In this document: piece by piece, positions 6,125-60,447 of the stretch
Numbering within the stretch: position 1 is the stretch's first letter
Layout: each line of letters begins with the position of its first letter
NCBI RefSeq assembly: GCF_017348835.2
Contig: NZ_CP071375.1
Source of the DNA: Escherichia coli
GTDB taxonomy: Bacteria > Pseudomonadota > Gammaproteobacteria > Enterobacterales > Enterobacteriaceae
Direction: 5' to 3' (one strand)
DNA length: 64,000 bases
Notes under the pieces: generated by a model
The model's input: the letters and a program-made list of their open reading frames with translations, nothing else
Database searches by the model: none
Told to the model about the DNA's origin: nothing
Translations under genes and position numbers: made by a program

Positions 6125-6400
6125 TCATGCCGGATGCGGCGTGAACGCCTTATCCGGCCTTCGAATGGAACGAGAATCTGTAGGCCTGATAAGCGTAGCG
6201 CATCAGGCATTTGTCACCATTGCCGGATGCGGCGTGAACGCCTTATCCGGCCTACAAGTGGCGCAAGAATTTGTAGGCCTGATAAGCGTAGCGCATCAGG
6301 CATTTGTCACCATTGCCGGATGCGGCGTGAACGCCTTATCCGGCCTACGAGTGGCACGAGAATTTGTAGGCCTGATAAGCGTAGCGCATCAGGCAGTCTG
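6125..6400. repeat. BIME/REP array, about three units of GCCGGATGCGGCGTGAACGCCTTATCCGGCCTAC alternating with GTAGGCCTGATAAGCGTAGCGCATCAGGC
   Basis: Directly visible near-identical tandem palindromic units; produces spurious ORFs with repeated MRRERLIRP peptides. Confidence 0.9.
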
Positions 6401-6444
6401 GCGTTGGTCATAACCCCATCACCCTCTGTAGCGGACATAACAAC

Positions 6445-9085: not shown

Positions 9086-9496
9086 ATGACCATAAAAGAA
9101 AAATTCTCACAAAAATATCCCCATGCTTCCTTTTGTACTTTTGGCGATTCAGCCGCGTTGGCCGATCACCTCGCAACGTTGATTGCGACTGGTGTTAAAA
9201 CAGCTTCCTGTGGTTCGCTGGCGGGATGTATTGAAGACAACGCATTTCCGATGATTGGTGAGTATAAGATTGTAGAAAATAGCCGTGGTGAGCCTGTATG
9301 TGTTATCAGAGTGATTGGCCTGCATTTACTGCGCTTTTCTGATGTCACCGCAGAGCTTGCCCGTAAGGAAGGTGAAGGTGACCTCAGTCTTGAATATTGG
9401 CGTAATGAACACCGTCGTTTTTTCCAGGCAGAAGGAAGCTATTCACCAGAAATGGACGTTATCTTTGAAGAATATGCCCTTATTGACGTTGTATAG
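9086..9496 (+). CDS. ASCH-domain (PUA-like) protein, about 136 aa
   Basis: ORF 9056..9496; the MTIKEKF start at 9086 is more plausible; ATLIATGVKTASCG resembles the ASCH GxKT core. Confidence 0.55.
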   Translation: MTIKEKFSQKYPHASFCTFGDSAALADHLATLIATGVKTASCGSLAGCIEDNAFPMIGEYKIVENSRGEPVCVIRVIGLHLLRFSDVTAELARKEGEGDLSLEYWRNEHRRFFQAEGSYSPEMDVIFEEYALIDVV

Positions 9497-9569
9497 ATAA
9501 CTATTTATCTACACGAAATAAGCTCACAAACATAAAATATCGCTAATTTTGTTTATTTTGCTGTTTTTT

Positions 9570-9588
9570 ACGTGATGAATGTCACACT
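9570..9588. promoter_or_regulatory. CRP-like half-site pair GTGA-N6-TCACA upstream of the ABC transporter
   Basis: Sequence acGTGAtgaatgTCACAct read directly; about 160 bp upstream of the binding-protein start codon. Confidence 0.35.
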
Positions 9589-9746
9589 TATTATTGCTGC
9601 CCGTTTTGTCCATATTTATAACCATATTTTTAATAGCTGCCTGAAATAGAGCTGTTTATTCTGCATAAAAATATTCGAAAATTCTTATTCTCTCCAGCGC
9701 GCTAATTTGGGCGAACACTTCCTGACTACCCTGCAATGAGGCTGAA

Positions 9747-10733
9747 ATGATGAATAAACGTTTTGTTATCAATATGGTGTCTTCGCTGTTATTAGGCGCT
9801 GCGCTAATTTCTGCGCCGCTCCAGGCAGCGGAAAAAGTCGTGGTGAATATTTCTAAAGTCGATGGTATGCCGTGGTTTAATCGCATGGGCGAAGGTGTGG
9901 TTGAGGCGGGTAAAGCCTTTGGTGTTAATGCCTCACAGGTGGGGCCTTCAAGTACTGATGCTCCGCAACAGGTTAAAATTATTGAGGATTTAATCGCCCG
10001 TAAGGTTAATGCAATTACTATCGTGCCAAACGATGCCAACGTGCTGGAACCGGTATTCAAAAAAGCGCGAGATGCCGGAATTGTGGTTCTGACCAACGAA
10101 TCCCCCGGTCAGCCAAGTGCTAACTGGGATATCGAAATCATTGATAACGAAAAATTTGCCGCTGAATATGTTGAGCATATGGCGAAACGCATGGGTGGCA
10201 AGGGCGGCTATGTGATTTACGTGGGTAGTTTGACCGTGCCGCAGCATAACTTATGGGCTGACTTGCTGGTGAAATACCAGAAAGAGCATTACCCGGATAT
10301 GCATGAAGTTACCCGCCGCATGCCGGTTGCCGAGAGTGTGGATGACTCACGTCGTACCACACTGGACCTGATGAAAACCTATCCTGACTTGAAAGCGGTT
10401 GTCTCCTTTGGTTCAAACGGTCCGATTGGCGCGGGACGTGCGGTGAAAGAGAAACGGGCGAAAAATAAAGTCGCAGTCTATGGCATGATGATCCCTTCAC
10501 AGGCGGCATCACTGATTAAAAGTGGTGATATCACCGAAGGGATTACTTACGATCCGGCCTCTGCAGGTTACGCACTCGCAGCCGTCGCCAGCACATTGCT
10601 GAAGGGTGAAGAGATCAAGCCTGGATTAGAAATGCAGAATCTGGGTAAGGCCGACGTAGATATGGATAAGCGAATTATCCGTTTCCATAAGGTATTACTG
10701 GTCAACAAAGACAATATCGACTCACTTTATTAA
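9747..10733 (+). CDS. periplasmic sugar-binding protein, LsrB/RbsB family (328 aa) with signal peptide
   Basis: Signal peptide MMNKRFVINMVSSLLLGAALISAPLQAAEK; C-terminal NKDNID motif shared with LsrB-type binding proteins. Confidence 0.85.
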   Translation: MMNKRFVINMVSSLLLGAALISAPLQAAEKVVVNISKVDGMPWFNRMGEGVVEAGKAFGVNASQVGPSSTDAPQQVKIIEDLIARKVNAITIVPNDANVLEPVFKKARDAGIVVLTNESPGQPSANWDIEIIDNEKFAAEYVEHMAKRMGGKGGYVIYVGSLTVPQHNLWADLLVKYQKEHYPDMHEVTRRMPVAESVDDSRRTTLDLMKTYPDLKAVVSFGSNGPIGAGRAVKEKRAKNKVAVYGMMIPSQAASLIKSGDITEGITYDPASAGYALAAVASTLLKGEEIKPGLEMQNLGKADVDMDKRIIRFHKVLLVNKDNIDSLY

Positions 10734-10781
10734 TCCATTTCTTCGGGGCGAAAGCCCCGATTCTTATTGCCAGGGGATGTT

Positions 10782-12266
10782 ATGGAAACCTTCCTTTCCC
10801 TTCGTCATATCAACAAAACGTTTCATGCCACGCGAGCGCTGCGCGATGTTTCTCTCGACTTTATGTCGGGTGAAGTGCACTGCCTTGCCGGGCAAAACGG
10901 CTGTGGTAAATCGACGTTGATTAAAATTATGTCCGGTGTTTATCGCCCGGATGAGGGAGCGGAAATTACGCTTGGTGGGAAAAACTGGTCAAAGCTGACA
11001 CCCGCCGCTTCGGTGGCGCAGGGGATTCAGGTGATTTATCAGGACCTCTCTTTATTTCCTAACCTGAGTGTCTGGGAGAATATCGCCGTGAATCACTATC
11101 ACCACGGTCTGTTTGTTAACCGCCGTCGTCTGCGTGAGGTGGCGCAGGCGGCAATGACCAGTATTAACGTCACATTGCCACTGGATACACTCGTTTCTGA
11201 GCTTTCAATTGCCCGCTGTCAGCTGGTGGCTATTTGCCGTGCACTGGCGCAGGACGCACGGTTGATCGTGATGGATGAACCAACCGCTTCGCTGACCCAT
11301 CAGGAAGTGCAAGGGTTATTACAGGTGGTGCATCAATTGCGTGAACGCGGGATCTGCGTGGTCTTCGTCAGTCATCGTCTGGAAGAAGTGATGGAAGTTT
11401 CCGAGCGTATTTCAGTGCTGAAAGATGGTGAGCTGGTCGGGACTTTTCCGGCTGCAGAGATGACCACAAAACAACTCGGTTTCCTGATGACCGGCCAGGA
11501 GTTTGAATATCAGGTGCGAGAGTTGTGGCAGGGAAAATCCAGCACCCCGGTGCTGGAGGTGCGTAATTTAAGTCGTCATGGGGAATATCTAAATATTAAC
11601 TTGCGGGTGGAAGCGGGCGAAGTGGTATCGATTGTTGGCCTGCTTGGTGCGGGGCGCACGGAATTATGTCTGAGTCTGTTTGGTATGACCCGACCGGATG
11701 CTGGCGAGATCCTCATCAACGGCCAGCCGGTTACACTGCATAGTAACCAGGACGCCATCCGCCACGGTATTGGTTATGTTTCGGAAGATCGCATGTCGCG
11801 CGGTTTGGTGATGGCGCAATCTATTGAAGACAACATCATTAGCACTGTTTTTCACAAGGTAAAAGATCGCTTCGGCTTTCTGAGTGAAACTAAAGTGCGT
11901 GACCTGGTGGACAGGCTAATCAAGGCATTGACCATCAAAGTCTCTGATCCTCATCTCCCGGTGAATACGCTTTCTGGTGGTAACGCGCAGCGAGTATCGA
12001 TCGCCAAATGGCTGGCGATTGGGCCACGACTGTTGATTCTCGATAGCCCGACAGTCGGTGTTGATATCGCCAACAAAGCAGGAATATACGGCATTATCAG
12101 CGATCTGGCGGCTCATGGCATTGCGGTATTGATGATCTGCGATGAAATTGAAGAAGCGTGGTATCAAAGCCACCGGATTTTGGTAATGCAAAAAGGTCAG
12201 ATCACCCATAGCTTCCTGCCTGACAGCAGTTCTCAGGCCAGGATTGCGGAGGTGGTAAATGGCTGA
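10782..12266 (+). CDS. sugar ABC transporter ATP-binding protein, duplicated ABC domains (about 494 aa)
   Basis: Two Walker A motifs (GQNGCGKST and GLLGAGRTE) and an ABC signature (LSGGNAQR); RbsA/LsrA-like architecture. Confidence 0.85.
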   Translation: METFLSLRHINKTFHATRALRDVSLDFMSGEVHCLAGQNGCGKSTLIKIMSGVYRPDEGAEITLGGKNWSKLTPAASVAQGIQVIYQDLSLFPNLSVWENIAVNHYHHGLFVNRRRLREVAQAAMTSINVTLPLDTLVSELSIARCQLVAICRALAQDARLIVMDEPTASLTHQEVQGLLQVVHQLRERGICVVFVSHRLEEVMEVSERISVLKDGELVGTFPAAEMTTKQLGFLMTGQEFEYQVRELWQGKSSTPVLEVRNLSRHGEYLNINLRVEAGEVVSIVGLLGAGRTELCLSLFGMTRPDAGEILINGQPVTLHSNQDAIRHGIGYVSEDRMSRGLVMAQSIEDNIISTVFHKVKDRFGFLSETKVRDLVDRLIKALTIKVSDPHLPVNTLSGGNAQRVSIAKWLAIGPRLLILDSPTVGVDIANKAGIYGIISDLAAHGIAVLMICDEIEEAWYQSHRILVMQKGQITHSFLPDSSSQARIAEVVNG

Positions 12267-13230
12267 ACTGAAAAAACGCCATGAATTCTGGCTGGCATTA
12301 CTGATTGTGGTGCTGTTTGTTGGCCTTGCCTGGCGCAGCGACGAGTTTCTGACATTCGGTAATTTGTACGATCTCGCCAATAACTATGCCATGTTGACTA
12401 TTCTCGCCTGTGGTTTGTTTGTGGTGTTGATTTCCGGTGGAATTGATATTTCGTTTCCAGCTATGACCATCATTGCGCAATACGGCATGGTGCTGTTGCT
12501 GCAAAAAATTGGTGGCAACTTCGCTGTCGCGTTTGCACTGGCGGGCTGCATCGGCATTTTACTTGGCTTAATTAACGCCTTACTGGTTAATCGCCTACGG
12601 GTGCCTTCTATCATCATCACTATCTCGACGCTGAATATTTTCTATGGCCTGCTGTTATGGTTGAGTAAAGGTGTGTGGCTGTACGACTTTCCGCCGTGGT
12701 TTGAGCAGGGGGTTATGTTGTTCAAGTACACCGATGCTGATGGCTATGACTATGGCCTTGGTCTGCCGCTGATCGCCATGATTACGGTGGTGCTGCTAAC
12801 AGCGTTTATCATGAATTTCACCAGTGTAGGGCGCAAAATTTATGCCCTTGGCGGGAACCGCGAATCAGCCAGTCGCATCGGCTTTAGCGTGCTGAAACTG
12901 CAACTTTTCGTCTATGGCTATATGGGATTGATGTCTGGCGCTGCGGGTGTAGTGCAGTCGTGGACGGTGATGACTGTCGCCCCCGATTCTCTTCTGGGTT
13001 ATGAGCTGACAGTACTGGCTGCGGTGGTGCTTGGCGGCACTAGTTTGCTCGGCGGGCACGGCACGTTAACCGGTACTTTGCTCGGCGTGGTGTTGTTGGC
13101 AGTGATGCAAAACGGGCTAAATTTATTGGGAGTCTCGTCTTACTGGCAAACATTGATCACCGGCATCATCATCGTTGCCAGCATTAGTGCCACGGCGTGG
13201 AGTCAGCATCAGAACCGGAGTCTGCTATGA
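12259..13230 (+). CDS. ABC transporter permease, RbsC-like (323 aa)
   Basis: Multi-TM hydrophobic ORF overlapping the ATPase stop by 8 bp. Confidence 0.8.
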   Translation: MAELKKRHEFWLALLIVVLFVGLAWRSDEFLTFGNLYDLANNYAMLTILACGLFVVLISGGIDISFPAMTIIAQYGMVLLLQKIGGNFAVAFALAGCIGILLGLINALLVNRLRVPSIIITISTLNIFYGLLLWLSKGVWLYDFPPWFEQGVMLFKYTDADGYDYGLGLPLIAMITVVLLTAFIMNFTSVGRKIYALGGNRESASRIGFSVLKLQLFVYGYMGLMSGAAGVVQSWTVMTVAPDSLLGYELTVLAAVVLGGTSLLGGHGTLTGTLLGVVLLAVMQNGLNLLGVSSYWQTLITGIIIVASISATAWSQHQNRSLL

Positions 13231-14183
13231 AAAAATCGTGGTGTAATAACGTTGAGTTTTACTTGATCGGCCTGCTGGTGCTAACTGTTGCCGCGTTCAG
13301 CATTACTATGCCGGAGATTTTCTGGTCGATAAGTAATTTCCAGTCCGTCGCTTCGCAAATGCCCGTGCTGGGCATTCTGGCGTTGGCTATGGCGGTGACC
13401 ATGCTTTGCGGTGGCATTAACTTGTCAATTATAGCCACTGCTAACGCCTGTTCACTGGTGATGGCGTGGGTGGCGACTCAGTATCCACCGGGTATTGCTA
13501 CGGTTGTCGCTACGTTACTGGCGGGCGCTGGCGCGGCGGTGATAATCGGTTTATGTAACGGCGTATTGATTGCTGGTATTCGAGTGTCGCCAATTCTTGC
13601 AACGCTTGGGATGATGACGTTGCTCAAAGGGATAAATATTCTGGTGACAGGTGGTAGCGCCATTGCCAATTATCCCTCATGGGTGCTGTGGTTGAATCAT
13701 GCGCAATGGTTCGGTATTCCGCTACCGATGTGGTTGTTTGCCGCAGTGGCACTGGGGCTGTGGATATTGCTGGAAAAAACGCCGCTCGGTAAAGCCATTT
13801 ACCTGATTGGGTCTAACGAACGAGCAACACTTTACTCCGGCATTAACACTCGTCGGGTGCTGATTTGGGTTTATGTCATTTCCGCCTTGCTTTGTGCGGT
13901 AGCGGCATTTTTGATGATGTCGAAACTCAACTCGGCTAAGGCCTCTTATGGCGAATCGTACTTGCTGGTGTCAATCCTCGCGGCAGTACTCGGCGGGGTT
14001 AATCCGGACGGCGGCAGCGGGCGGATAATTGGTATGGTGCTGGCGCTGTTTCTTCTGCAAATTATTGAAAGCGGCTTCAATATTCTCGGTATAAGCCCCT
14101 ACCTGACGATGGCCTTATGGGGAACGTTGCTGCTCTGTTTCATTCAGGCTCGCGGCATGTTGGGGCTGGATCGGGTGGTTTAA
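13227..14183 (+). CDS. ABC transporter permease, second subunit (about 318 aa)
   Basis: Multi-TM ORF; the MKKSW start forms an ATGA overlap with the preceding permease stop. Confidence 0.8.
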   Translation: MKKSWCNNVEFYLIGLLVLTVAAFSITMPEIFWSISNFQSVASQMPVLGILALAMAVTMLCGGINLSIIATANACSLVMAWVATQYPPGIATVVATLLAGAGAAVIIGLCNGVLIAGIRVSPILATLGMMTLLKGINILVTGGSAIANYPSWVLWLNHAQWFGIPLPMWLFAAVALGLWILLEKTPLGKAIYLIGSNERATLYSGINTRRVLIWVYVISALLCAVAAFLMMSKLNSAKASYGESYLLVSILAAVLGGVNPDGGSGRIIGMVLALFLLQIIESGFNILGISPYLTMALWGTLLLCFIQARGMLGLDRVV

Positions 14184-17051: not shown

Positions 17052-17722
17052 TCACCGCTGCGTCACCCCTTCGTAAATCAGGCGTAGCGCGAATACACCA
17101 ATAATTGCACCAATAACCCGACTGGCAACGCGTTGCATACGCCCATAAGCACGACGCACAGCGGGCAAAGAAAACGCCTGACTAAGAAAGACTCGCCAGA
17201 TAACTGATGCGAGCACAATCCCCGCCCAGGCCATTAAACGTGCCCATGTTGGTGTTTCGGCATTTAATGTTACTGAGAAAATACTGATAAAAAATAAAAC
17301 GGTTTGCGGGTTAGAGAGATCGGTAATTAATCCGCGGCGAAAAAAGACATACCAGGGGCGCTAATCGGTTGTTGTAGTGTGCTCATTTGCGGTGTTGACT
17401 GGCGGCGCATGCTACACCACGCAAACCATAAGAGATAAGCGCCGCCGACGATTCTGATAAGCGAAAAAATCTCCTCACACTGCGTAATTAGCGTTGCAAG
17501 ACCAAACAAACCCAACCCGGAATAAAATGCATCGCCCAGCGCCACGCCCAGTCCGGTCAGCACTCCTGCGCGTCGACCGGAAGCCAGGCTGGTTTGTACT
17601 ACCACAAAAAGATTGGCTCCCGGATTAAAAAAAGTAATCACGAACAGTCCTACGGTCAGGTAAACGGCGTGCAAAGGATCCATAGTGATTTCATCCATAA
17701 ATAAGTGAAGTAACTTCATCAT
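17052..17722 (-). pseudogene. yahN: LysE/RhtB-family amino-acid exporter, apparently disrupted by a -1 frameshift in a poly-T tract
   Basis: Two minus-strand ORFs (17327..17722 and 17052..17234) in different frames; combined span 671 nt versus 672 nt expected for 223 aa plus stop; frame break at a T-homopolymer near 17339-17345. Confidence 0.55.
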
Positions 17723-18144: not shown

Positions 18145-18241
18145 TTCTGAATCCTATGTAAACATGCCCGATGCGTAAGTTTACTGGTGATCATCTATTG
18201 AAATTTATGCCGGATAAAGCGTTCGCGCTGCATTCGGCAGT

Positions 18242-20957: not shown

Positions 20958-20974
20958 AAAACGCCCGTTGATTG

Positions 20975-21080
20975 TATTCGACAGCCGATGCCTGATGCGT
21001 CGCTGACGCGAATTATCAGGCCTACGGGATGCACTGAACTGTAGGTCGGATAAGACGCATAGCGTCGCATCCGACAACAA
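20975..21080. repeat. REP element pair between prpB and prpC
   Basis: GCCTGATGCGTCGCTGACGCG...GTAGGTCGGATAAGACGCATAGCGTCGCATCCGAC palindromic units. Confidence 0.85.
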
Positions 21081-21117
21081 TCTCGACCCTACAAATGATA
21101 ACAATGACGAGGACAAC

Positions 21118-23811: not shown

Positions 23812-25698
23812 ATGTCTTTTAGCGAATTTTATCAGCGTTCGATTAACGAACCGGAGCAGTTCTGGGCCGAGCAGGCCCGGCGTATTGACTGGCAGACGCC
23901 CTTTACGCAAACGCTTGATCACAGCAATCCGCCGTTTGCCCATTGGTTTTGTGAAGGCCGAACCAACTTGTGTCACAACGCTATCGACCGCTGGCTGGAG
24001 AAACAGCCAGAGGCGCTGGCGCTGATTGCCGTCTCTTCGGAAACAGAAGAAGAGCGCACCTTTACCTTTCGTCAGCTGCATGACGAAGTGAATGCGGTGG
24101 CGTCAATGCTGCGCTCGCTGGGCGTGCAGCGTGGCGATCGGGTGCTGGTGTATATGCCGATGATTGCCGAAGCGCATATTACCCTGCTGGCCTGCGCGCG
24201 CATTGGCGCTATTCATTCGGTGGTGTTTGGGGGATTTGCCTCGCACAGCGTGGCGGCGCGAATTGATGACGCTAAACCGGTGCTGATTGTCTCGGCTGAT
24301 GCCGGAGCGCGCGGTGGCAAAATCATTCCCTATAAAAAATTGCTCGACGATGCGATAAGTCAGGCGCAGCATCAGCCGCGCCACGTTTTGCTGGTGGATC
24401 GCGGACTGGCGAAAATAGCGCGCGTCAGCGGGCGGGATGTCGATTTCGCGTCGTTGCGCCATCAACACATCGGCGCGCGGGTGCCAGTGGCGTGGCTGGA
24501 ATCCAACGAAACCTCCTGCATTCTCTACACTTCCGGCACGACCGGCAAACCTAAAGGCGTGCAGCGTGACGTCGGCGGATATGCGGTGGCGCTGGCGACC
24601 TCGATGGACACCATTTTTGGCGGCAAAGCGGGCGGTGTGTTCTTTTGTGCTTCGGATATCGGCTGGGTGGTGGGGCATTCGTATATCGTCTACGCGCCGC
24701 TGCTGGCGGGGATGGCGACTATCGTTTACGAAGGATTACCGACCTGGCCGGACTGCGGCGTGTGGTGGAAAATCGTCGAGAAATATCAGGTTAGCCGGAT
24801 GTTCTCAGCGCCGACCGCCATTCGCGTACTGAAAAAATTCCCTACCGCTGAAATTCGCAAACACGATCTCTCGTCGCTGGAAGTGCTCTATCTGGCTGGA
24901 GAACCGCTGGACGAGCCGACCGCCAGTTGGGTGAGCAATACGCTGGATGTGCCGGTCATCGACAACTACTGGCAGACCGAATCCGGCTGGCCGATTATGG
25001 CGATTGCTCGCGGTCTGGACGACAGGCCGACGCGTCTGGGAAGCCCCGGCGTGCCGATGTATGGCTATAACGTGCAGTTGCTTAATGAAGTCACCGGCGA
25101 ACCGTGTGGCGTCAACGAGAAAGGGATGCTGGTGGTGGAAGGGCCGCTGCCTCCGGGTTGTATTCAGACCATCTGGGGCGACGACGACCGTTTTGTGAAG
25201 ACGTACTGGTCGTTGTTTTCCCGCCCGGTGTACGCCACTTTTGACTGGGGTATCCGCGATGCTGACGGTTATCACTTTATCCTCGGGCGCACTGATGATG
25301 TGATTAACGTTGCCGGGCATCGGCTGGGCACGCGCGAGATTGAAGAGAGTATTTCCAGTCATCCGGGCGTTGCCGAAGTGGCGGTGGTTGGGGTGAAAGA
25401 TGCGCTGAAAGGGCAGGTGGCGGTAGCGTTTGTCATTCCGAAAGAGAGCGACAGTCTGGAAGACCGAGACGTGGCGCACTCGCAAGAGAAGGCGATTATG
25501 GCACTGGTGGACAGCCAGATTGGCAACTTTGGCCGCCCGGCGCACGTCTGGTTTGTCTCGCAATTGCCGAAAACGCGATCAGGAAAAATGCTGCGCCGCA
25601 CGATCCAGGCGATTTGCGAAGGACGCGATCCTGGGGATCTGACGACCATTGATGATCCGGCGTCGTTGGATCAGATCCGCCAGGCGATGGCAGACTAA
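23812..25698 (+). CDS. prpE: propionyl-CoA synthetase
   Basis: 628 aa acyl-CoA synthetase with the AMP-binding motif YTSGTTGKPKG. Confidence 0.92.
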   Translation: MSFSEFYQRSINEPEQFWAEQARRIDWQTPFTQTLDHSNPPFAHWFCEGRTNLCHNAIDRWLEKQPEALALIAVSSETEEERTFTFRQLHDEVNAVASMLRSLGVQRGDRVLVYMPMIAEAHITLLACARIGAIHSVVFGGFASHSVAARIDDAKPVLIVSADAGARGGKIIPYKKLLDDAISQAQHQPRHVLLVDRGLAKIARVSGRDVDFASLRHQHIGARVPVAWLESNETSCILYTSGTTGKPKGVQRDVGGYAVALATSMDTIFGGKAGGVFFCASDIGWVVGHSYIVYAPLLAGMATIVYEGLPTWPDCGVWWKIVEKYQVSRMFSAPTAIRVLKKFPTAEIRKHDLSSLEVLYLAGEPLDEPTASWVSNTLDVPVIDNYWQTESGWPIMAIARGLDDRPTRLGSPGVPMYGYNVQLLNEVTGEPCGVNEKGMLVVEGPLPPGCIQTIWGDDDRFVKTYWSLFSRPVYATFDWGIRDADGYHFILGRTDDVINVAGHRLGTREIEESISSHPGVAEVAVVGVKDALKGQVAVAFVIPKESDSLEDRDVAHSQEKAIMALVDSQIGNFGRPAHVWFVSQLPKTRSGKMLRRTIQAICEGRDPGDLTTIDDPASLDQIRQAMAD

Positions 25699-25704
25699 GG
25701 TAAT

Positions 25705-26062
25705 GTCGGATGCGTCGCGTGGCGCATCCGACACCATGCGCCGATGCCTGATGCGACGCTGACGCGTCTTATCATGCCTACAGGTCTGAACCGTAGGTCG
25801 GATAAGGCGTTCGCGCCGCATCCGACACCGTGTGCAGATGCCTGATGCGACGCTGACGCGTCTTATCATGCCTACAGGCCTGAACCGTAGGTCGGATAAG
25901 GCGCTCGCGCCGCATCCGACACCGTGCGCAGATGCCTGATACGACGCAGGCGCGTCTTATCATGCCTACAGGCCTGAACCGCAGGTCGGATAAGGCGTTC
26001 GCGCCGCATCCGACACCATGCGCCGATGCCTGATGCGACGCTGGCGCGTCTTATCATGCCTG
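25705..26062. repeat. BIME/REP array (about four units) between prpE and codB
   Basis: Repeated CCGATGCCTGATGCGACGCTGACGCGTCTTATCATGCCTACAGG...GTAGGTCGGATAAGGCG units; generates nested spurious ORFs on the minus strand. Confidence 0.9.
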
Positions 26063-26132
26063 CCCACTGTTTTTACACCGATAATTTTCCCCCACCTTTT
26101 TGCACTCATTCATATAAAAAATATATTTCCCC

Positions 26133-26146
26133 ACGAAAACGATTGC
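26133..26146. promoter_or_regulatory. PurR-box-like sequence ACGAAAACGATTGC upstream of codB
   Basis: Matches the PUR-box core (ACGCAAACGTTTGC-like) by eye; codBA is a known PurR target. Confidence 0.45.
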
Positions 26147-26214
26147 TTTTTATCTTCAGATGAATAGAATGCGGCGGATTTTTTGGGTTTCAAACAGCAA
26201 AAAGGGGGAATTTC

Positions 26215-27474
26215 GTGTCGCAAGATAACAACTTTAGCCAGGGGCCAGTCCCGCAGTCGGCGCGGAAAGGGGTATTGGCATTGACGTTCGTCATGCTGGG
26301 ATTAACCTTCTTTTCCGCCAGTATGTGGACCGGCGGCACTCTCGGAACCGGTCTTAGCTATCATGATTTCTTCCTCGCAGTTCTCATCGGTAATCTTCTC
26401 CTCGGTATTTACACTTCATTTCTCGGTTACATTGGCGCAAAAACCGGCCTGACCACTCATCTTCTTGCTCGCTTCTCGTTTGGTGTTAAAGGCTCATGGC
26501 TGCCTTCACTGCTGCTGGGCGGCACCCAGGTTGGCTGGTTTGGCGTTGGCGTGGCGATGTTTGCTATTCCGGTGGGCAAGGCAACCGGGCTGGATATTAA
26601 TTTGCTGATTGCCGTTTCCGGTTTACTGATGACCGTCACCGTCTTCTTTGGCATTTCGGCGCTGACGGTTCTTTCGGTGATTGCGGTTCCGGCTATTGCC
26701 TGCCTTGGCGGTTATTCCGTGTGGCTGGCCGTTAACGACATGGGCGGTCTGGACGCATTAAAAGCGGTCGTTCCCGCACAACCGTTAGATTTCAATGTCG
26801 CGCTGGCGCTGGTTGTGGGGTCATTTATCAGCGCGGGTACGCTCACCGCTGACTTTGTCCGCTTTGGTCGCAATGCCAAACTGGCGGTGCTGGTGGCGAT
26901 GGTGGCCTTTTTCCTCGGCAACTCGTTGATGTTTATTTTCGGTGCAGCGGGCGCTGCGGCACTGGGGATGGCGGATATCTCTGATGTGATGATTGCTCAG
27001 GGCCTGCTGTTGCCTGCGATTGTGGTGCTGGGGCTAAATATCTGGACCACCAACGATAACGCGCTCTATGCGTCGGGTTTAGGTTTCGCCAACATTACCG
27101 GGATGTCGAGCAAAACCCTTTCGGTAATCAACGGTATTATCGGTACGGTCTGTGCATTATGGCTGTATAACAATTTTGTCGGCTGGTTGACCTTCCTTTC
27201 GGCAGCTATTCCTCCAGTGGGTGGCGTGATCATTGCCGACTATCTGATGAACCGTCGCCGCTATGAGCACTTTGCGACCACGCGTATGATGAGTGTCAAT
27301 TGGGTGGCGATTCTGGCGGTCGCCTTGGGGATTGCCGCAGGCCACTGGTTACCGGGAATTGTTCCGGTCAACGCAGTATTAGGTGGCGCGCTGAGCTATC
27401 TGATCCTTAACCCGATTTTGAATCGTAAAACGACAGCAGCAATGACGCATGTGGAGGCTAACAGTGTCGAATAA
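26215..27474 (+). CDS. codB: cytosine permease (GTG start)
   Basis: 419 aa, 12-TM NCS1 family; N-terminus [19 protein letters not shown]. Confidence 0.92.
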
Positions 27475-28779: not shown

Positions 28780-28870
28780 AGTTTATGCCGGATGCGGCGT
28801 GAACGCCTTATCCGGCCTACGTAGAGCACTGAACTCGTAGGCCTGATAAGCGTAGCGCATCAGGCAATTG
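28780..28870. repeat. REP pair between codA and cynR
   Basis: GCCGGATGCGGCGTGAACGCCTTATCCGGCCTAC ... GTAGGCCTGATAAGCGTAGCGCATCAGGC. Confidence 0.85.
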
Positions 28871-31081: not shown

Positions 31082-32236
31082 ATGCTGCTGGTTCTGGTGC
31101 TGATTGGTCTTAATATGCGACCACTGCTCACCTCCGTCGGGCCACTGCTACCGCAATTGCGCCAGGCAAGCGGAATGAGCTTTAGCGTGGCTGCCCTGTT
31201 GACCGCTCTTCCGGTGGTCACCATGGGCGGGCTGGCGCTGGCCGGAAGCTGGCTTCATCAGCATGTCAGCGAACGTCGCAGCGTCGCCATCAGTTTGTTG
31301 CTGATTGCCGTCGGTGCATTGATGCGTGAGCTTTACCCCCAAAGTGCGCTGCTGCTTAGCAGCGCACTGCTTGGTGGGGTGGGGATCGGCATCATTCAGG
31401 CGGTGATGCCTTCGGTGATTAAACGGCGGTTTCAGCAGCGCACGCCACTGGTGATGGGGCTGTGGTCCGCGGCTCTGATGGGCGGCGGTGGACTTGGCGC
31501 CGCCCTGACGCCCTGGTTAGTTCAACATAGCGAAACCTGGTATCAAACACTCGCCTGGTGGGCGCTGCCTGCCGTTGTTGCGCTCTTTGCCTGGTGGTGG
31601 CAAAGCGCCCGCGAGGTCGCCTCTTCCCACAAGACAACAACCACTCCGGTTCGCGTGGTATTTACTCCCCGCGCGTGGACGCTGGGTGTTTACTTCGGTC
31701 TGATTAACGGTGGTTACGCCAGCCTGATTGCCTGGTTACCCGCCTTCTATATTGAGATTGGTGCCAGCGCGCAGTACAGCGGTTCCTTGCTGGCATTGAT
31801 GACGCTTGGGCAAGCCGCAGGAGCTTTGCTGATGCCTGCTATGGCTCGCCATCAGGATCGGCGCAAACTGTTAATGCTGGCGCTGGTGTTACAACTGGTG
31901 AGGTTCTGCGGCTTTATCTGGCTGCCGCTGCAATTGCCGGTATTGTGGGCGATGGTGTGTGGGTTAGGTCTGGGTGGCGCGTTTCCGCTCTGTTTGCTGC
32001 TGGCGCTCGATCACTCTGCGCAACCAGCTATTGCTGGCAAGCTGGTGGCGTTTATGCAGGGGATCGGTTTTATCATCGCCGGGCTTGCCCCGTGGTTTTC
32101 TGGTGTGCTGCGTAGTATCAGCGGCAATTACCTGATGGACTGGGCATTTCATACGCTGTGCGTCGTTGGGCTGATGATCATAACCCTGCGCTTTGCACCA
32201 GCACGTTTTCCGCAGCTGTGGGTCAAAGAGGCATGA
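31082..32236 (+). CDS. cynX: MFS cyanate transporter (384 aa)
   Basis: ORF 31055..32236; start MLLVLVLIGLNMRPLL at 31082. Confidence 0.88.
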   Translation: MLLVLVLIGLNMRPLLTSVGPLLPQLRQASGMSFSVAALLTALPVVTMGGLALAGSWLHQHVSERRSVAISLLLIAVGALMRELYPQSALLLSSALLGGVGIGIIQAVMPSVIKRRFQQRTPLVMGLWSAALMGGGGLGAALTPWLVQHSETWYQTLAWWALPAVVALFAWWWQSAREVASSHKTTTTPVRVVFTPRAWTLGVYFGLINGGYASLIAWLPAFYIEIGASAQYSGSLLALMTLGQAAGALLMPAMARHQDRRKLLMLALVLQLVRFCGFIWLPLQLPVLWAMVCGLGLGGAFPLCLLLALDHSAQPAIAGKLVAFMQGIGFIIAGLAPWFSGVLRSISGNYLMDWAFHTLCVVGLMIITLRFAPARFPQLWVKEA

Positions 32237-32239
32237 TGC

Positions 32240-32332
32240 GACGCTTGTTCCTGCGCTTTGTTCATGCCGGATGCGGCTAACGTAGATCACTGAACTTGTA
32301 GGCCTGATAAGCGCAGCGCATCAGGCAATTTT
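32240..32332. repeat. REP pair between cynX and lacA
   Basis: GCCGGATGCGGCTAACG...GTAGGCCTGATAAGCGCAGCGCATCAGGC. Confidence 0.8.
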
Positions 32333-32950: not shown

Positions 32951-32974
32951 TGCGATCATTCCGTCCTGATATGT

Positions 32975-33010
32975 TGGTCGGATAAGGCGCTCGCGCCGCA
33001 TCCGACATTG
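32975..33010. repeat. REP unit in the lacY-lacA intergenic region
   Basis: GGTCGGATAAGGCGCTCGCGCCGCATCCGAC. Confidence 0.8.
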
Positions 33011-38600: not shown

Positions 38601-38670
38601 ATTCACCACCCTGAATTGACTCTCTTCCGGGCGCTATCATGCCATACCGCGAAAGGTTTTGCGCCATTCG
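38601..38670 (-). promoter_or_regulatory. lacI promoter (-35 GCGCAA, -10 CATGAT), embedded in the 3' end of the upstream regulator gene
   Basis: Reverse complement reads GAATGGCGCAAAACCTTTCGCGGTATGGCATGATAGCGCCCGGAAGAGAGTCAATTCAGGGTGGTGAAT, the classical lacI promoter sequence. Confidence 0.85.
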
Positions 38671-39590
38671 GCGGGGCTGACGCCGAAGTGAGATTTAAAA
38701 TGCTGACGCCAGGTCACAGGTGAGAGAAAACCCACCTCAGCCGCTATCCGCTCCACGGGCAACTGACTGGATCCCAACAGTTCCTGGCTACGGCGTAAGC
38801 GTTCAGTAATGAGCCATTCGGCGATACTCGAACCGGTCGCTTTCATAAAATGGCGAGTTAATGTGCGGCGACTCATCATTACTCGCTGCGCCAGCGAGTC
38901 GAGATCATGCTGTTGCGCAATGTTTTGCCGCAGGTAATCCAGCAGGAGATTAATGCGTTCATCAAGGGTATTTTTCGGCACTGGTTGCTCAATAAACTGC
39001 GCCTGACCGCCAGTGCGATATGGCGGTACGACCATCCGTCGGGCAATATGGTTAGCATAGTCGCTGCCAAAATGTTGCCGAACAATATACAAACAGCAAT
39101 CCAGCGCCGCGGCAGTACCGGCAGAGGTAATAATGCCGTCATCGTCTACGTACAACGCGTTAATATCCAGATGTGTTTGTGGAAAACGTGCCTGAAATTC
39201 ACGCTCGAACTCCCAGTGCGTGGCGGCACGCTTATTTTTCAGTAAACCTGCATAGCCGAGCACAAACGTGCCCAGGCAAAGCCCGACAATCTGTGCGCCG
39301 TTATCCCGTGCGGTCGTTAAGGCTTCCAGCAGTTTTTGTGGCGGTTTTTGTGTAATGGTTCCCCAGTAAGGAATTATCACAATATCTGCCTGGATGACTG
39401 CGGTATAGTCATGGGTGGCGGTTACGGAAAACCCATCGGCAGAGTCCACGTTTCCCGGCTTTTCAGCGCAGATAATTACGTGAAAGTGTTTTTTCTCCGC
39501 CATTTTTTCGCTAAATACGATAAACGGTACGGAAAGGTGAAAAGGACTAAAACCGGCAACGGCGATAATGGCAACAGTTAGCGGGCGCAT
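38637..39590 (-). CDS. DJ-1/PfpI-domain plus AraC-type HTH transcriptional regulator (GlxA/FtrA-like), 317 aa
   Basis: N-terminal DJ-1-like domain with the conserved Cys nucleophile elbow (QIVGLCLGTFVL); C-terminal AraC HTH (RRTLTRHF, SPAEWRKTF). Confidence 0.8.
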   Translation of the reverse strand: MRPLTVAIIAVAGFSPFHLSVPFIVFSEKMAEKKHFHVIICAEKPGNVDSADGFSVTATHDYTAVIQADIVIIPYWGTITQKPPQKLLEALTTARDNGAQIVGLCLGTFVLGYAGLLKNKRAATHWEFEREFQARFPQTHLDINALYVDDDGIITSAGTAAALDCCLYIVRQHFGSDYANHIARRMVVPPYRTGGQAQFIEQPVPKNTLDERINLLLDYLRQNIAQQHDLDSLAQRVMMSRRTLTRHFMKATGSSIAEWLITERLRRSQELLGSSQLPVERIAAEVGFLSPVTWRQHFKSHFGVSPAEWRKTFRGMA

Positions 39591-39609
39591 AACACTCTTT
39601 ATCTCCGAA

Positions 39610-40398
39610 TTAGAATGTCAACGTTTCACCATCTTCTGGTACGTTCACAAATTCGATAATTTGATTATCTCTGGCGTATTCCTTGAGCGCATCACGCGTC
39701 AGCAAACAGTGGTTTACGGCCTCCATATGTGTCGCGACAATTTGCGCTTCTGGCAGGGTAAAATGTGTTTTGAGAATATCTTCTGCTCCCATAATTATCG
39801 CGCCATGCCCCAGAACATGCGCAAATCCGGCATTCAACACAACCACTTCTGGTTGGAAAGTTAGCATTGTAGCCTCGACGTCGTCACGCCAGAGGGTATC
39901 GCCACCCAGATAGAGCGTTTTCTCTGTCGGGTGCTGGAAAACAACGCCGCAGGCTGCGCCTAAACGCTTCGCCATAGCCGGGTCGGCATAGGTGCGATCG
40001 GAGCCGTGCTGCCCTGTCGTTTTATGCAGAGTAATATCGCCAAATTTAGTCTCGTCGGTAAGTACGGTAAGATGCGTAAATCCTTGTTTATTCAGTGATT
40101 CAGCATCTTGCTCATTTTGCACATAAATCAGTTTATCTTTAGGGACGACGCGGGAGGCTGTTTCGTCCCAGTGATCTTCATGCAAATGGGTCACGATTAG
40201 GGCGTCAACGTTGAGTAACGTTGTTAAATCGCACGGTAATTCTACCGTTGGATTGCGGATTTCTGCGCGTGCCGTTCCGGCAAAACCCGGATAACTTCCT
40301 TTAGGCGCGAGTAACGGGTCGATAAGAAATGTTTTGCCAGCGTATTGGATAATTTGGGTGGCATTACGAATTTGCGTAATTTTCATGATTTGCTCCAC
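39610..40398 (-). CDS. metallo-beta-lactamase-fold hydrolase (262 aa)
   Basis: HxHxDH motif (THLHEDHWDE) plus downstream His/Asp ligands; 19 bp upstream of the regulator on the same strand. Confidence 0.8.
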   Translation of the reverse strand: MEQIMKITQIRNATQIIQYAGKTFLIDPLLAPKGSYPGFAGTARAEIRNPTVELPCDLTTLLNVDALIVTHLHEDHWDETASRVVPKDKLIYVQNEQDAESLNKQGFTHLTVLTDETKFGDITLHKTTGQHGSDRTYADPAMAKRLGAACGVVFQHPTEKTLYLGGDTLWRDDVEATMLTFQPEVVVLNAGFAHVLGHGAIIMGAEDILKTHFTLPEAQIVATHMEAVNHCLLTRDALKEYARDNQIIEFVNVPEDGETLTF

Positions 40399-47829: not shown

Positions 47830-48085
<256 letters not shown>

Positions 48086-50034: not shown

Positions 50035-50145
50035 AGTCGTGCGCAGATGCCTGATGCGACGCTTACGCGTCTTATCATGCCTACGGCTCATGGGCGAAAT
50101 GTAGGCCGGATAAGGCGTTCACGCCGCATCCGGCAGTTGTGCACT
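50035..50145. repeat. REP pair between yaiL and frmB
   Basis: GCCTGATGCGACGCTTACGCGTCTTATCATGCCTAC ... GTAGGCCGGATAAGGCGTTCACGCCGCATCCGGCA. Confidence 0.85.
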
Positions 50146-52654: not shown

Positions 52655-53713
52655 TTATGCCGCATCCGCTAAAACAAACATCCCGTAAGGATGGATTTCG
52701 AGGTAATAGTGCTCACCAATATCGGGCTGTAAACGGGTGGCGTTTACTTGTAATAGAATCTCCTGTCCATGCCACTCTACGGTCACTTCGTACTGCGGCC
52801 CCATGTAGGCGACATGGCGAATAACACAACGCTGACTCTCTTCGCCGTGATTGCTTAAGGTGATGGCTTCCGGGCGAACGCCGACGGTGCCGCTACCTTG
52901 CGCCGGGAAATGCGCCGCGCGCGGCAGGCGATAACCGTAGATATCGACATACTCTTCGCTAAAGTTCGCCGGGAACAGGTTGGCGTCGCCCATAAAACTT
53001 GCCATAAATCGGGAGGCTGGCTGACGATAGAGATCCTGCGGTGAGCCAATTTGCATGATGTGACCTTTATTCATCACCAGCACAGTGTCGGACACCGCGA
53101 AAGCTTCACTTTGATCGTGAGTGACGTAGAGCGACGTGATATTAAACTGCTTTTGCAGCTCGCGGATCTTATCGCGCATACTGCGGCGCAGGTTGGCATC
53201 GAGGTTACTTAACGGCTCATCAAACAGCAGCACCTTTGGCTTGAGGATCAACGCGCGGGCCAGTGCCACTCGCTGTTGCTGACCACCGGAAATCTGATCG
53301 ACATAGCGGTCCTCGAAGCCTTCCAGATCCACCATTGCCAGCGCCTCCTTCACCCGCTGTTTCACTTCGCTACGCGAGACGCCAAGCATCTTCAGCCCGT
53401 AGCCAACGTTTTCACCCAGCGACATATGCGGGAACAGAGCGTATGACTGAAACACCATGCAGATATCGCGCTGTTGAATGGAACGATGCGTGACATCTTC
53501 GCCATCAATAAAAATTTGCCCTTCGCTCGGTTTTTCCAGCCCGGCAACCAGACGCAAAATGGTGGTTTTGCCACAGCCGGAAGGACCGAGCAGCGTCACC
53601 ATTTGCCCTTGTGGAATGGTGAGATTGATATTGTCGATAACCGTATTACTGCCGAATCGTTTAGTGACGTTGCGCAGTTCAACAAAATTTTTCTGACTCA
53701 TATTGCGCTCCAT
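52655..53713 (-). CDS. afuC: ABC transporter ATP-binding protein (FbpC/AfuC-like, 352 aa)
   Basis: Walker [10 protein letters not shown], signature ISGGQQQRV, Walker B LLFDEPLS. Confidence 0.85.
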
Positions 53714-55791
53714 TACGCCTGGTTTTTGGCTTTAGAACGGGAGATACGAGCTTCTCCGATCAGCCAGTCAAAGAGGAAAATAATCGCCAGCATCACCACG
53801 ATCAGAATCGAACCATAGGCGATGGCTACGCCATATTCGCCGTCTTCAACGCGGTTAAGAATGTAGGCGGTTGCCACGCGGGTGTCCGGCGTGACGAGAA
53901 AGACGATGGCGCTGACCGTCGTGATGGCCCGCACAAAGCTGTAGATCAGGGCCGAGAGAATGGCCGGACGCAGCAGCGGCAGTAAAATGTGGGTTATGGT
54001 TCGCAAGGAACCCGCGCGCAGGCTGAGTGAGGCTTCATCCAGCGATTTGTCGATCTGCCCCAGACCCGCAATCCCGGCGCGAATACCCACCGGAACGTTA
54101 CGCATCACCATCGAGATAATCACAATTGCCGCCGTTCCGGTGAGATAAACCGGAGCGCTGTTAAAGGCAAGAATATACGAAACGCCCGCCACCGTACCCG
54201 GTACGGCAAAGCACAGCATGGTGGTGAACTCGATGGTCTTTTTGCCTTTGAATTGTTGACGCACCACCACCCAGGCGATGAGCAGGCCAAAGATAGCGGT
54301 AATGGGAGCGGCAATCCCGGCGTAGAGCAGGGTATCCAGCAGTGAAGGCCACGCGCCGTCGCTCATTCCCTGACCAAATAGCTTGATAAAGTTATCCAGC
54401 GTCAGGGTGTAGTCCACGCCCCAGTTCACCGTGAAGCTGCCGTAGAAAATGCTGCCGTAGAGCAGGGCGTTAAAGGCAATCCATATCGCAAGTATGGCGA
54501 CCACGCTCCACACCAGGGTGACCGGTAGCGGCTGGACGTCGCCACGGTAGGATTTGCCGGAAACCGTGACGTAAGAGCGTTTACCAATCCACATATACTG
54601 GATGCAGAACACCAGCAGCGAGAACAGCAGCAGGAAAGCGCCAAGGGTGCTGGCGGCCTGATAATCCAGCTGCGAGCCGGTAATATAGAAGTAAATTTGC
54701 GTCGCCAGTACGTCGAAGTTACCGCCAAGTACCAGCGGGTTACTGAAATCAGCCAGTGACTGTACCACGACGATTAAAAAGGCATTGGCGAGTGCGGGCT
54801 TCAACAACGGCACAAACACGCCGTTAAAGGTTTGCCAGCGGCTGGCGCGCAGGGTGTAGGAGGCCTCTTCCAGCGAGGGATGAATGGTTTTAATGGCCCC
54901 GTCGAGGATCATAAATGCCATTGGCGTGAATGCCAGAACCTGTGCCAGCCAGATCCCGGTAAAACCGTACAGCCAGTTGGTGTTGGTCAGCCCAAACCAC
55001 TCCACCATAAATTCCGTAACATAGCCGGAGCGCCCCATCATGAGCGTCACGCCTAAGCCGACCACAAACGGTGGCGTAACGATGGGCAAAATGGAAAAGA
55101 TGCGACCAATAATGGCGCTGCGTTTAGCGATGCGCGTGGTATAAATCGCCAGCACCAGGCCGAAGAAAGTACAGCCTATCCCCACCGCTATCGACAAGAC
55201 GATAGAGTTGACGATCACCTGAACAATATGTGCCTGCGAGAGCACGGTCATAAACGCCAGCGGGGCGAACTCTCCCGCGTCGTTGGTGAACATCGGGATA
55301 AAAATGGCGATGCTCGGCCAGACGATAAAAATGCCAATCAGCGCCACAATCGCAATCAGTGAGCCGATCACGAAGCGGTCGCCGCCCAGCCATTCGAGGC
55401 GGGTTAAGGCCAGCGTCATAATCGCGCCTAGTTCAACAAACAGCACGATGGCGGCGTAGCCTAAACCGCGTCCAGCCACGGTGGCGCTGATGACGATAAA
55501 CGCCATACAGAGCAATGCCCAGCTGGCATCAAAATAATGACGACTACGCTGTTCGCGTGTGGCCTCACGAAACGGGCGAACCAGCAACAGACTCGGTAAC
55601 AAATACCACAGCCAGCTGATATTAAAATGCGACCAGCCATAAGCCTCGAGGATCTCATCACTCGTGGACTCCAGCAGGCCATAATCGAGGCTCCAGCTCG
55701 GCAACAGTATAAATGCCAGCCAGCCCAGCAAAACCCAAAGGAAAATCGCATCCCGCTTTTTCACGGGATGGAGTGCAAGTGTCTGTGACAT
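53713..55791 (-). CDS. afuB: ABC transporter permease, fused two-domain (FbpB/AfuB-like, 692 aa)
   Basis: 692 aa polytopic ORF with two permease domains; start overlaps afuC. Confidence 0.85.
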
Positions 55792-55859
55792 AGCAGTTCC
55801 GGTATGGTTGGCCGGGGCAGGCGTTTGTGCTGCACCCGGTAAATACGCCTAATGCGGGT

Positions 55860-58204: not shown

Positions 58205-58276
58205 GTTGCTGACTATATGAAAATGAAAGTGAAAGGGGATGAGAGAAAATCCGGGATACCTAAGACTTTTTCCTGG

Positions 58277-59818: not shown

Positions 59819-60447
59819 TAATGCCCCGCCAGCAGATGGTGGTCGAGCGCAAAATGTACCAGTTCAATGGTGCTATGGCAGTTCAGTTTTCCCAGCACAT
59901 TGGCGCGATGCACATGTACCGTTTTATGACTGAGTTCGAGTTTAAAGGCGATCTCTTTAACGCTGTCTCCTTTGACCAGTAAATCAAACACTTCACGTTC
60001 TCGTGGGGTGAGAATTTCCAGCGCCTGGGCGGGTTGCCCGCCGCCGCGTAAAGCCCGAATCGCATCGGCACAGAGATAATGCCCGCCCAGCCCGACCGAG
60101 CGCACCGCCTGCACTAACTCTTCCGGCCCACAGCGTTTGGTTAAATACCCGCTGGCACCGGCATCCAGCGCGCTTTGCACAAAGGTTGGCGCGTCATAAA
60201 TGCTAAGAATAATGGCGCGAAATTGCGGTTTTTGTGCACGCAGGCGCTTAAGCAAACTGAGGCCGTTTTCGTCCGGCATGGCAATATCAATGACGGCAAC
60301 ATTGACGTCATCACGGATTAATGCCGACCATGCCTGCGCGGCACTACTGTACTGACCAATGACCTCCAGATCGTCTTCCAGAGAGAGTAATTGTGCGAAG
60401 CCAGAGCGCACCACCACATGGTCATCCACCAGCACTACCCGAATCAT
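59818..60447 (-). CDS. response regulator, NarL/FixJ family, UhpA-like (209 aa)
   Basis: Receiver domain (VVLVDDH...IDIAMPD) and LuxR-type HTH (EIAFKLELSHKTVHVHRANVLGKL). Confidence 0.85.
   Translation of the reverse strand: MIRVVLVDDHVVVRSGFAQLLSLEDDLEVIGQYSSAAQAWSALIRDDVNVAVIDIAMPDENGLSLLKRLRAQKPQFRAIILSIYDAPTFVQSALDAGASGYLTKRCGPEELVQAVRSVGLGGHYLCADAIRALRGGGQPAQALEILTPREREVFDLLVKGDSVKEIAFKLELSHKTVHVHRANVLGKLNCHSTIELVHFALDHHLLAGH

Follow-up and report, generated by a model that had tools for sequence, protein, structure and literature searches.

REP/BIME-type arrays in a 64-kb window of Escherichia coli and the seven-unit array between prpE and codB

Introduction

What fills the gap between prpE and codB in Escherichia coli, and what may it do for the genes on either side? 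In the stretch of 64 kb analysed here (yahB to tauD; henceforth the window), the stop codon of prpE (25698) and the start of codB (26215) enclose a dense array of alternating inverted repeats. A first-pass annotation, made from the letters alone, had taken this array and its counterparts elsewhere in the window for repetitive extragenic palindromic (REP) units, that is, for bacterial interspersed mosaic elements (BIMEs), and the reading frames nested in them for spurious ones. We agree with this identification. It is very likely that the arrays are E. coli REP sequences (palindromic units) organised as BIME-2-type arrays, with a stabilising and attenuating role in the 3' untranslated region (UTR) that is assigned by analogy.

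The concepts of the E. coli palindromic unit with its classes Y, Z1 and Z2 and of BIME-2 are said to go back to Gilson, Bachellier and Hofnung. REPs are imperfect palindromes of 30-40 nt with a 5' GTAG; a BIME-1 consists of one y/z1 pair and a long L linker that binds integration host factor (IHF), and a BIME-2 is a tandem, multi-copy arrangement of y/z2 units with short linkers. How many BIMEs stand in tandem at one locus differs among strains (Ton-Hoang et al. 2012, PMC3333891).

Identity of the repeat units

The observation is real and lies far beyond chance, and the features of these REPs and BIMEs have all been described for E. coli already. A looser IUPAC version of the REP pattern matched the window 13 times, against a mean of 0.01 expected from 100 dinucleotide-preserving shuffles. 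Scanning with the REP pattern proper in GTAG-head orientation detected 26 units, to which an nhmmer profile built from these units added a degenerate copy (18209-18239) and a palindrome without the GTAG head (25704-25733). The window thus holds 27 REPs of 30-37 nt and one headless unit. They occupy nine gaps (yahG-yahI, yahO-prpR, prpB-prpC, prpE-codB, codA-cynR, cynX-lacA, lacY-lacA, mhpE-mhpT and yaiL-frmB), and the earlier estimate of at least nine REP-bearing intergenic gaps is therefore borne out by scan and profile together.

Tandem arrays, located and assigned their periods with Tandem Repeats Finder, number only three in the 64 kb. They lie at 25723-26061 (period 94, 3.6 copies, 93% matches), 6128-6395 (period 93, 2.9 copies) and 47836-48079 (period 101, 2.4 copies). 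Their previous description as three- and four-unit arrays holds if a unit is understood as a REP pair (3 pairs in yahG-yahI, 4 in prpE-codB and 2.5 in mhpE-mhpT) and fails if single REPs are counted (6, 7+1 and 5, respectively).

The identification is carried by the GTAG head, the imperfect palindrome, the alternating inversion, compensatory changes in the stem, the match to published REPs and matches to an Rfam family that are discussed below. Strand alternation is strict. Head-to-head linkers measure 11-17 nt and tail-to-tail linkers 11-12 nt, and each array comprises 2.4-3.6 copies of the pair. Three REP queries that Durrant et al. 2024 (PMC11208160) quote have identical counterparts among the units of the window, and the Z units of the mhpE-mhpT array equal the published TGCCGGATGCGGCGTAAACGCCTTATCCGGCCTAC. 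When 5,426 complete E. coli genomes were queried with sequences that contain an array, 5,425 gave matches, with a median of 18-32 matching places in each; the units are thus widespread in E. coli and not confined to these loci.

In unit size, GTAG head, stem mismatch, Y/Z inversion, short linkers, extragenic position and copy-number variation the arrays resemble the REP/BIME-2 elements of E. coli, and nothing essential sets them apart; the prpE-codB array departs from these in minor variants only (Z units with GGTCGG/CCGACC, Y units with an A.G mismatch and ATCATGCCTAC, and the headless unit). We call them BIME-2-like because the linkers are short, an IHF consensus is lacking and the arrays are multi-copy. 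With a BIME-1 they share the inverted arrangement of a Y and a Z REP, whereas the single copy and the long, IHF-binding L linker of that class are not seen: no match to the IHF consensus WATCAANNNNTTR occurs in any of the nine REP-bearing gaps, and the longest linker has 17 nt. BIME-1 was rejected on these grounds. CRISPR and other classes of tandem repeats are ruled out by strictly alternating inverted units without unique spacers.

The prpE-codB array

Four inverted Z/Y pairs with a period of 94 nt make up the array (Table 1), in which a repeat search returned three in-register copies with 92-100% identity and 94-nt spacing. Its Z units read GGTCGG...CCGACC where those of the other arrays read GGCCGG...CCGGCC, a compensatory double change.

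The first unit differs from all others. Strain 2009C-3133 carries a full Z REP at the position of the headless palindrome, with a GTAG head that overlaps the TAG stop codon of prpE. This comparison of alleles identifies the headless palindrome as a Z unit that has diverged. Its appearance is that of a Z REP of which the 5' arm was 'corrected' to its 3' arm, in the manner of a quasipalindrome template switch.

The units of the array in the window differ from each other by 3-8 mismatches, and identical variants recur in the arrays of other strains. Both observations together show the array to be a mosaic, probably from repeated unequal exchange. A single recent burst of amplification was considered and rejected for the same two reasons. 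Between the array and the codB start lies CCCACGAAAACGATTGCTTTTT (26120-26145), which resembles what we take to be a PurR operator; the stretch is identical in K-12.

Table 1. Coordinates of REP units, arrays and an array-derived open reading frame in the window
Feature	Position	Strand	Description
BIME array, prpE-codB	25704-26063		headless Z-derived palindrome, then Y-, Z+, Y-, Z+, Y-, Z+, Y- (7 REPs)
Headless palindrome, unit 1 of prpE-codB	25704-25733		perfect 13-bp stem; no GTAG head, no stem mismatch; 5 nt past prpE stop
Y-type REPs, prpE-codB	25745-25781, 25839-25875, 25933-25969, 26027-26063	-	extra A.G stem mismatch; head end ATCATGCCTAC on + strand
Z-type REPs, prpE-codB	25793-25827, 25887-25921, 25981-26015	+	GGTCGG/CCGACC variant; encode MRRERLIRP read from the tail
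BIME array, yahG-yahI	6128-6395		REP23 in K-12; 6 REPs as three Z/short-Y pairs; period 93 nt
Hypothetical protein WP_053884098.1 (PGAP)	6165-6413	+	82 aa; yahH equivalent; 31-aa translations of the REP pair
Single degenerate Z-like REP	18209-18239	+	convergent yahO/prpR gap; 2 nt from prpR stop; nhmmer E = 1.9e-4
Head-to-head Y/Z pair	20989-21076		prpB-prpC gap within the prpBCDE operon; 15-nt linker; exact IS621 target at 21015
Z/short-Y pair	28786-28866		convergent codA/cynR gap; units identical to those of the yahG-yahI array
Single short-Y REP	32298-32327	+	convergent cynX/lacA gap
Single Z-type REP	32973-33007	+	lacY-lacA gap, inside the lac operon; 8 nt past lacY stop
BIME array, mhpE-mhpT	47843-48079		Z-, Y+, Z-, Y+, Z- (5 REPs, 2.5 pairs); period 101 nt
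Y/Z pair	50048-50135		convergent yaiL/frmB gap

Hairpin structure

Single units fold as RNA into a stem, an internal loop and a second stem with -12.9 to -21.3 kcal/mol (z = -3.3 to -5.0). The headless unit reaches -23.2 kcal/mol (z = -5.9), and the fold of the whole array (380 nt) amounts to -185.8 kcal/mol compared with -148 ± 6 in shuffles (z = -5.9). When the 27 units (19 of them distinct) were aligned, standard pairing was present in 96.6% of the cells, as opposed to 19-39% when the partner was slid by one to three columns. Changes on both sides of the stem were found at 4 of 11 pairs (CG/UA, GC/UA, GC/AU), with a covariation score that none of 500 shuffles reached. The head reads GTAG in 21 of the 27 aligned units, and the remainder carry GAAG, GCAG (twice), GTTG, GTAG-A or TTAT. 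An AA/GC internal loop (alignment columns 12-13 and 28-29) is present in all full units and gone from the headless palindrome.

Placement relative to genes

All REP units are intergenic. Classified by the PGAP annotation, which served as the gene map, they occupy none of the six divergent gaps, four of the five convergent ones and five of the 45 co-directional ones. A REP lies within 15 nt of the stop codon at seven gene ends, prpE among them. Convergent or operon-terminal positions had been claimed for the units. This claim is too strong, since three of the occupied gaps (yahG-yahI, prpB-prpC and lacY-lacA) are located inside operons, and the description 'at operon boundaries' is for this reason only partly right. 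The accurate rule is that REPs are placed downstream of a gene and never in a gap that holds promoters only.

Degenerate REP remnants (GCATGATGCGACGCTTG... and ATGCCGGATGCGGCTAACG) were noticed upstream of the intact REP at 32298; at about 32231-32280 they overlap both cynX, at its 3' end, and the first part of the cynX-lacA gap. The K-12 record NC_000913.3 lists no curated REP features, and REP23 is the only K-12 REP number that could be assigned.

Copy-number variation between strains

A comparison of unit numbers across strains had been proposed as a check, and we carried it out on spread samples drawn from the 5,426 complete E. coli genomes, counting REPs in the fetched alleles. All three arrays turned out to vary by whole periods. 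The prpE-codB gap has one REP in BL21-type strains and TW10722, three in K-12, four in 2009C-3133, five in CP53, seven in the window and 15 in strain 107. For yahG-yahI the counts are zero in 19AR0646, two in CUWW06, six in the window, eight in K-12 and ten in O157:H7.

Size variation extends to the prpB-prpC gap, which comprises 160 nt with two REPs in the window (20958-21117) and 439 nt in K-12 (349573-350011). In one strain the yahG-yahI gap of 94 nt is free of REPs (NZ_CM132279.1, 397-490) and holds a different hairpin repeat, CCCTTCTCCCTTCTGGGGAGAGGG, which resembles what we presume to be the enterobacterial 'box C' elements. Different repeat families thus occupy the same gap in different strains.

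REP transposase and IS621

The REP transposase TnpA_REP/RayT, which recombines BIMEs in vitro, depends on both the GTAG head and the mismatch in the stem; hicAB in place of rayT is a known replacement in the B1 clade (Ton-Hoang et al. 2012, PMC3333891). The genome around the window is represented here by E. coli PE164 (NZ_CP114128.1, a pig isolate), the minus strand of which is 100% identical to the window. Outside the window, PE164 has hicA-hicB between yafL and lfhA (3958543-3959170), where K-12 has rayT. The transposase gene is absent from this locus, the only one at which it is known to reside; the search did not extend to other parts of the PE164 genome. Among the complete genomes, rayT was detectable in 3,575 of 5,426. 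The expanded array of 7+1 REPs is thus probably found in a strain without REP transposase. RayT has historically been implicated in changes of such arrays. With hicAB at the rayT locus, however, host recombination or slippage is the more likely source of present-day copy-number change at prpE-codB.

The arrays are also landing sites. IS621, an insertion sequence of the IS110 family with a bridge RNA, resides inside the orthologous prpE-codB array in at least seven E. coli genomes (for example NZ_AP022409.1, 1478-2768), with the junction ATCAGGCCT^AC, also written CTTATCAGGCCT^AC; its natural target is ATCAGGCCTAC. Targets of IS621 in REPs were reportedly described by Choi in 2003 and are also given by Durrant et al. 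2024. The window has seven exact copies of ATCAGGCCTAC in Y units of other gaps, at 21015 (+) and at 6180, 6273, 6366, 28837, 32298 and 47996 (-). In its own prpE-codB array, unlike in those of the other strains, each of the four Y units reads ATCATGCCTAC, which leaves the array without an exact target.

Possible functions of the array

The array likely acts, by analogy with other REP loci, as a local hairpin element of a 3' UTR, with a stabilising effect on the upstream mRNA and a partly attenuating one on read-through. In transcripts of prpBCDE, of which they form the 3' UTR, the hairpins would block 3'-to-5' exonucleolytic decay of the mRNA upstream, and they would partly attenuate read-through into codBA in a Rho-dependent manner. 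Since the first hairpin begins only 5 nt past the prpE stop codon, it may also impede ribosomes that terminate there. REPs no more than 15 nt from the end of an open reading frame have been linked to translational control or to ribosome stalling at termination, according to PMC12306157, which cites Liang 2015. At the DNA level, the Y units may be preferred cleavage sites for gyrase; BIME-2 elements are enriched for sites of gyrase cleavage, most of which lie in Y units (PMC6379681). The arrays themselves would gain and lose units when unequal exchange or slippage takes place between the direct copies of 94 nt.

The closest model is REP325, the BIME array between yjdM and yjdN on which the Rfam family naRNA4 (RF02564) is based. 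A covariance model places both in the same repeat family, and both are multi-pair arrays between co-directional genes; we therefore consider the behaviour of REP325 as stabiliser and attenuator the best functional analogy for the prpE-codB array. REP325 has a stabilising effect on the yjdM mRNA upstream of it and also attenuates transcription that enters yjdN, partly in dependence on Rho (preprint 10.64898/2026.03.23.713779). The two differ in locus and flanking genes, and two of the three arrays of the window have the strand that resembles naRNA4 in antisense orientation to the neighbouring genes. The role in nucleoid condensation first ascribed to naRNA4 is now contested.

Four points weigh against this interpretation. 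Every functional step at prpE-codB is taken over by analogy from other REP loci. The effects of REPs depend on their context, and mRNAs that end in REPs show no general gain in half-life (preprint 10.64898/2026.03.23.713779). Alleles of prpE-codB with a single REP are common (BL21, TW10722) and the yahG-yahI gap can be free of REPs, from which it follows that a large array is dispensable. Finally, the classes Y and Z are clear, but a BIME-2 also presupposes Z2 units over Z1, so that the arrays may instead be an 'atypical BIME'.

One could go further and regard the copy number at prpE-codB (1-15 REPs) as a heritable, strain-specific dial that would set the stability of the prpE mRNA, the termination of translation and the read-through into codBA. 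In strains of the hicAB type that have lost RayT, this dial would be moved by host recombination or slippage alone, and the Y units with ATCATGCCTAC would incidentally shield the array from IS621. We offer this idea tentatively and hold it to be rather improbable.

Among the competing explanations, the one that deserves most attention is that the arrays are neutral or selfish repeat DNA without measurable local effect, kept by amplification through RayT or slippage and by weak selection. The extreme copy-number polymorphism with its REP-free and single-REP alleles would fit, as would the lack of a uniform half-life effect of REPs across the genome (preprint 10.64898/2026.03.23.713779) and the service of the arrays as landing pads for IS621. 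A preference for certain insertion sites and the recognition needs of the transposase could likewise account for placement and stem conservation. However, the strict exclusion from divergent promoter gaps, the position close to stop codons and the compensatory changes that preserve the stem argue for an effect on the host genes. The same is true of effects on neighbouring gene expression that have been measured for REP325 and other REPs. We think neutrality unlikely, with a chance that should still be reckoned with.

A second explanation starts from the Rfam matches. Seven matches to RF02564, distributed over all three large arrays, scored 69.3-84.9 bits with a gathering threshold of 59.5 bits, and REP325 RNA was reported to bind HU and to affect the size of the nucleoid (Qian et al. 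2015, PMC4550694). The arrays could accordingly be genes for naRNA4-like, nucleoid-associated non-coding RNAs that, together with HU, link remote stretches of cruciform-forming REP DNA to each other and condense the chromosome. However, a single BIME array, REP325, underlies the model, and a match accordingly indicates membership in a DNA repeat family and not expression. Only in prpE-codB are the matches sense to the flanking genes (25796-25872, 25890-25966 and 25984-26060, all on the plus strand). Those in yahG-yahI (6183-6345) and mhpE-mhpT (47898-48076) lie on the minus strand and are antisense, which shows that the model detects the DNA repeat and not an expressed small RNA. Copy number, moreover, ranges from 0 or 1 to 10 or 15 between strains, and a 2026 preprint, with the original senior author among its authors, found no nucleoid compaction, no stable ternary complex of HU, DNA and RNA and no REP-REP contacts in Hi-C (10.64898/2026.03.23.713779). 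We give this proposal very little credence. For annotation the consequence is that the naRNA4 model will tag any BIME-2 array as a gene for a small RNA.

A role for the hairpins as ordinary intrinsic (Rho-independent) terminators at the end of the prp operon is highly improbable despite strong GC-rich stems directly past its last gene, as the only T-run (TGTTTTT at about 26070) follows the last stem by roughly 9 nt, a terminator scan of the plus strand from 25500 to 26400 found no hairpin with a U-tract, and the same units also occur inside operons (prpB-prpC and lacY-lacA).

Open reading frames within the arrays

The sequence comparison supports the view that the open reading frames in the arrays, yahH included, are artefacts of GC-rich, stop-poor palindromes and not conserved proteins. 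Nested spurious frames with the recurring peptide MRRERLIRP had been pointed out before; a Z-type REP, translated from the tail end, yields just this peptide. The window has nine exact copies of it and three more that differ by one substitution, all of them on Z-type units. Together with the 'YahH' motif GCGVNALSGL it turns up wherever a Z unit is present, over five or six gaps; GCGVNALSGL itself has ten coding Z units, which are spread over five gaps.

Whether a long frame results depends on the period. In yahG-yahI, 93 nt equal 31 codons, so that two of the three plus-strand frames are free of stops across the whole array; the periods of 94 and 101 nt shift the frame with each unit and give short frames only. 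The K-12 gene yahH (b0322), described in the literature as 'filled with REP23 sites' (PMC11551758), lies at the orthologous locus, and its product of 106 aa is a run of 31-aa repeats read from the in-frame 93-nt pair unit. The window has six REPs there as compared to eight in K-12, one pair unit fewer. In K-12, YahH ends at a 1-nt deletion in the last unit. This deletion is not found in the window, where the frame consequently continues to 6413 and a product of 82 instead of 106 aa is called.

It had been suggested that yahH coincides with a REP array and is probably not a gene, and the comparison of strains agrees with this. In 30 of the 53 sampled genomes that hold the yahG-yahI locus, two REPs or fewer are present and no coding sequence is called, as was confirmed in two fetched alleles. 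Where YahH is annotated, its length is 82 aa (PE164), 98 aa (O157), 106 aa (K-12) or 154 aa (Neuhaus). A frame-shifting 1-nt indel in the linker was found in three of 13 units from four strains, one of them in the middle of the O157 array. In the same units, variable sites follow the boundary between REP (3 of 65) and linker (9 of 28; Fisher p = 8e-4) and not the codon: positions one, two and three hold 4, 5 and 2 variable sites without an excess at the third, although with n = 11 the power is low. Searches of Pfam and NCBIfam with the yahH-type frame gave no match past the cut-off, the best being NF033228 with 32.5 bits (cut-off 35 bits) over a low-complexity stretch of 13 residues. The three YahH-type products had no exact counterpart among protein clusters either, probably because GTG or other alternative start codons had been rendered as V and not as M.

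The opposite opinion, that the frames in the arrays and above all yahH are real, translated and recently evolved protein genes (a 'triple function' locus), was put forward by Neuhaus et al. Ribosome profiling had been named as a check on translation, and here a weak counter-claim has been published. In enterohaemorrhagic E. coli (EHEC), the 465-nt frame X002/yahH was covered by ribosome footprints with a reads-per-kilobase-per-million (RPKM) value of 56, a coverage of 0.61 and an RCV of 0.64 (Neuhaus et al. 2016, PMC4765031). In RefSeq for K-12 and in PGAP annotation, long arrays also continue to carry YahH or a hypothetical protein. The footprints were, however, mapped with Bowtie defaults and without a filter for uniqueness, no peptide was seen by mass spectrometry, the pattern was 'very regular', and yahH is said in the same paper to have been dropped from annotation because of its REP content (PMC4765031). 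Depending on the length chosen, 21-33% of the 20-25-mers of the array recur outside it in 114 kb of PE164 sequence alone. In our opinion the footprints are not enough to outweigh the comparative result, and a genuine yahH gene is most improbable.

The main value of these findings lies in annotation hygiene. REP arrays with a period that is a multiple of three give long stop-free frames which are still called genes, as exemplified by the hypothetical protein of 82 aa predicted by PGAP here and by YahH in K-12 and O157. Biologically, our data are confirmatory and add another well-documented case in which BIME copy number varies by whole units, promoter gaps stay free of REPs and IS621 lands in REPs. 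They make no open question newly testable, and everything is already in the literature.

Other features of the window

Apart from the arrays, yahN, which codes for an exporter of the LysE family (17052-17722, minus strand), is annotated as frameshifted and thus as a pseudogene in the window strain. Three stretches are not present at this place in K-12. According to the K-12 map, one of them (9086-14183, between yahJ and yahK) carries a gene with an ASCH domain and an AI-2-type sugar ABC transporter. Going by the gene order that we assume for K-12, the other two presumably are 38637-40386 between lacI and mhpR, with an MBL-fold hydrolase and a regulator of the GlxA family, and 52655-60447 between frmR and tauA, with an fbpC/ABC transporter, a uhpC-like receptor and a two-component system.

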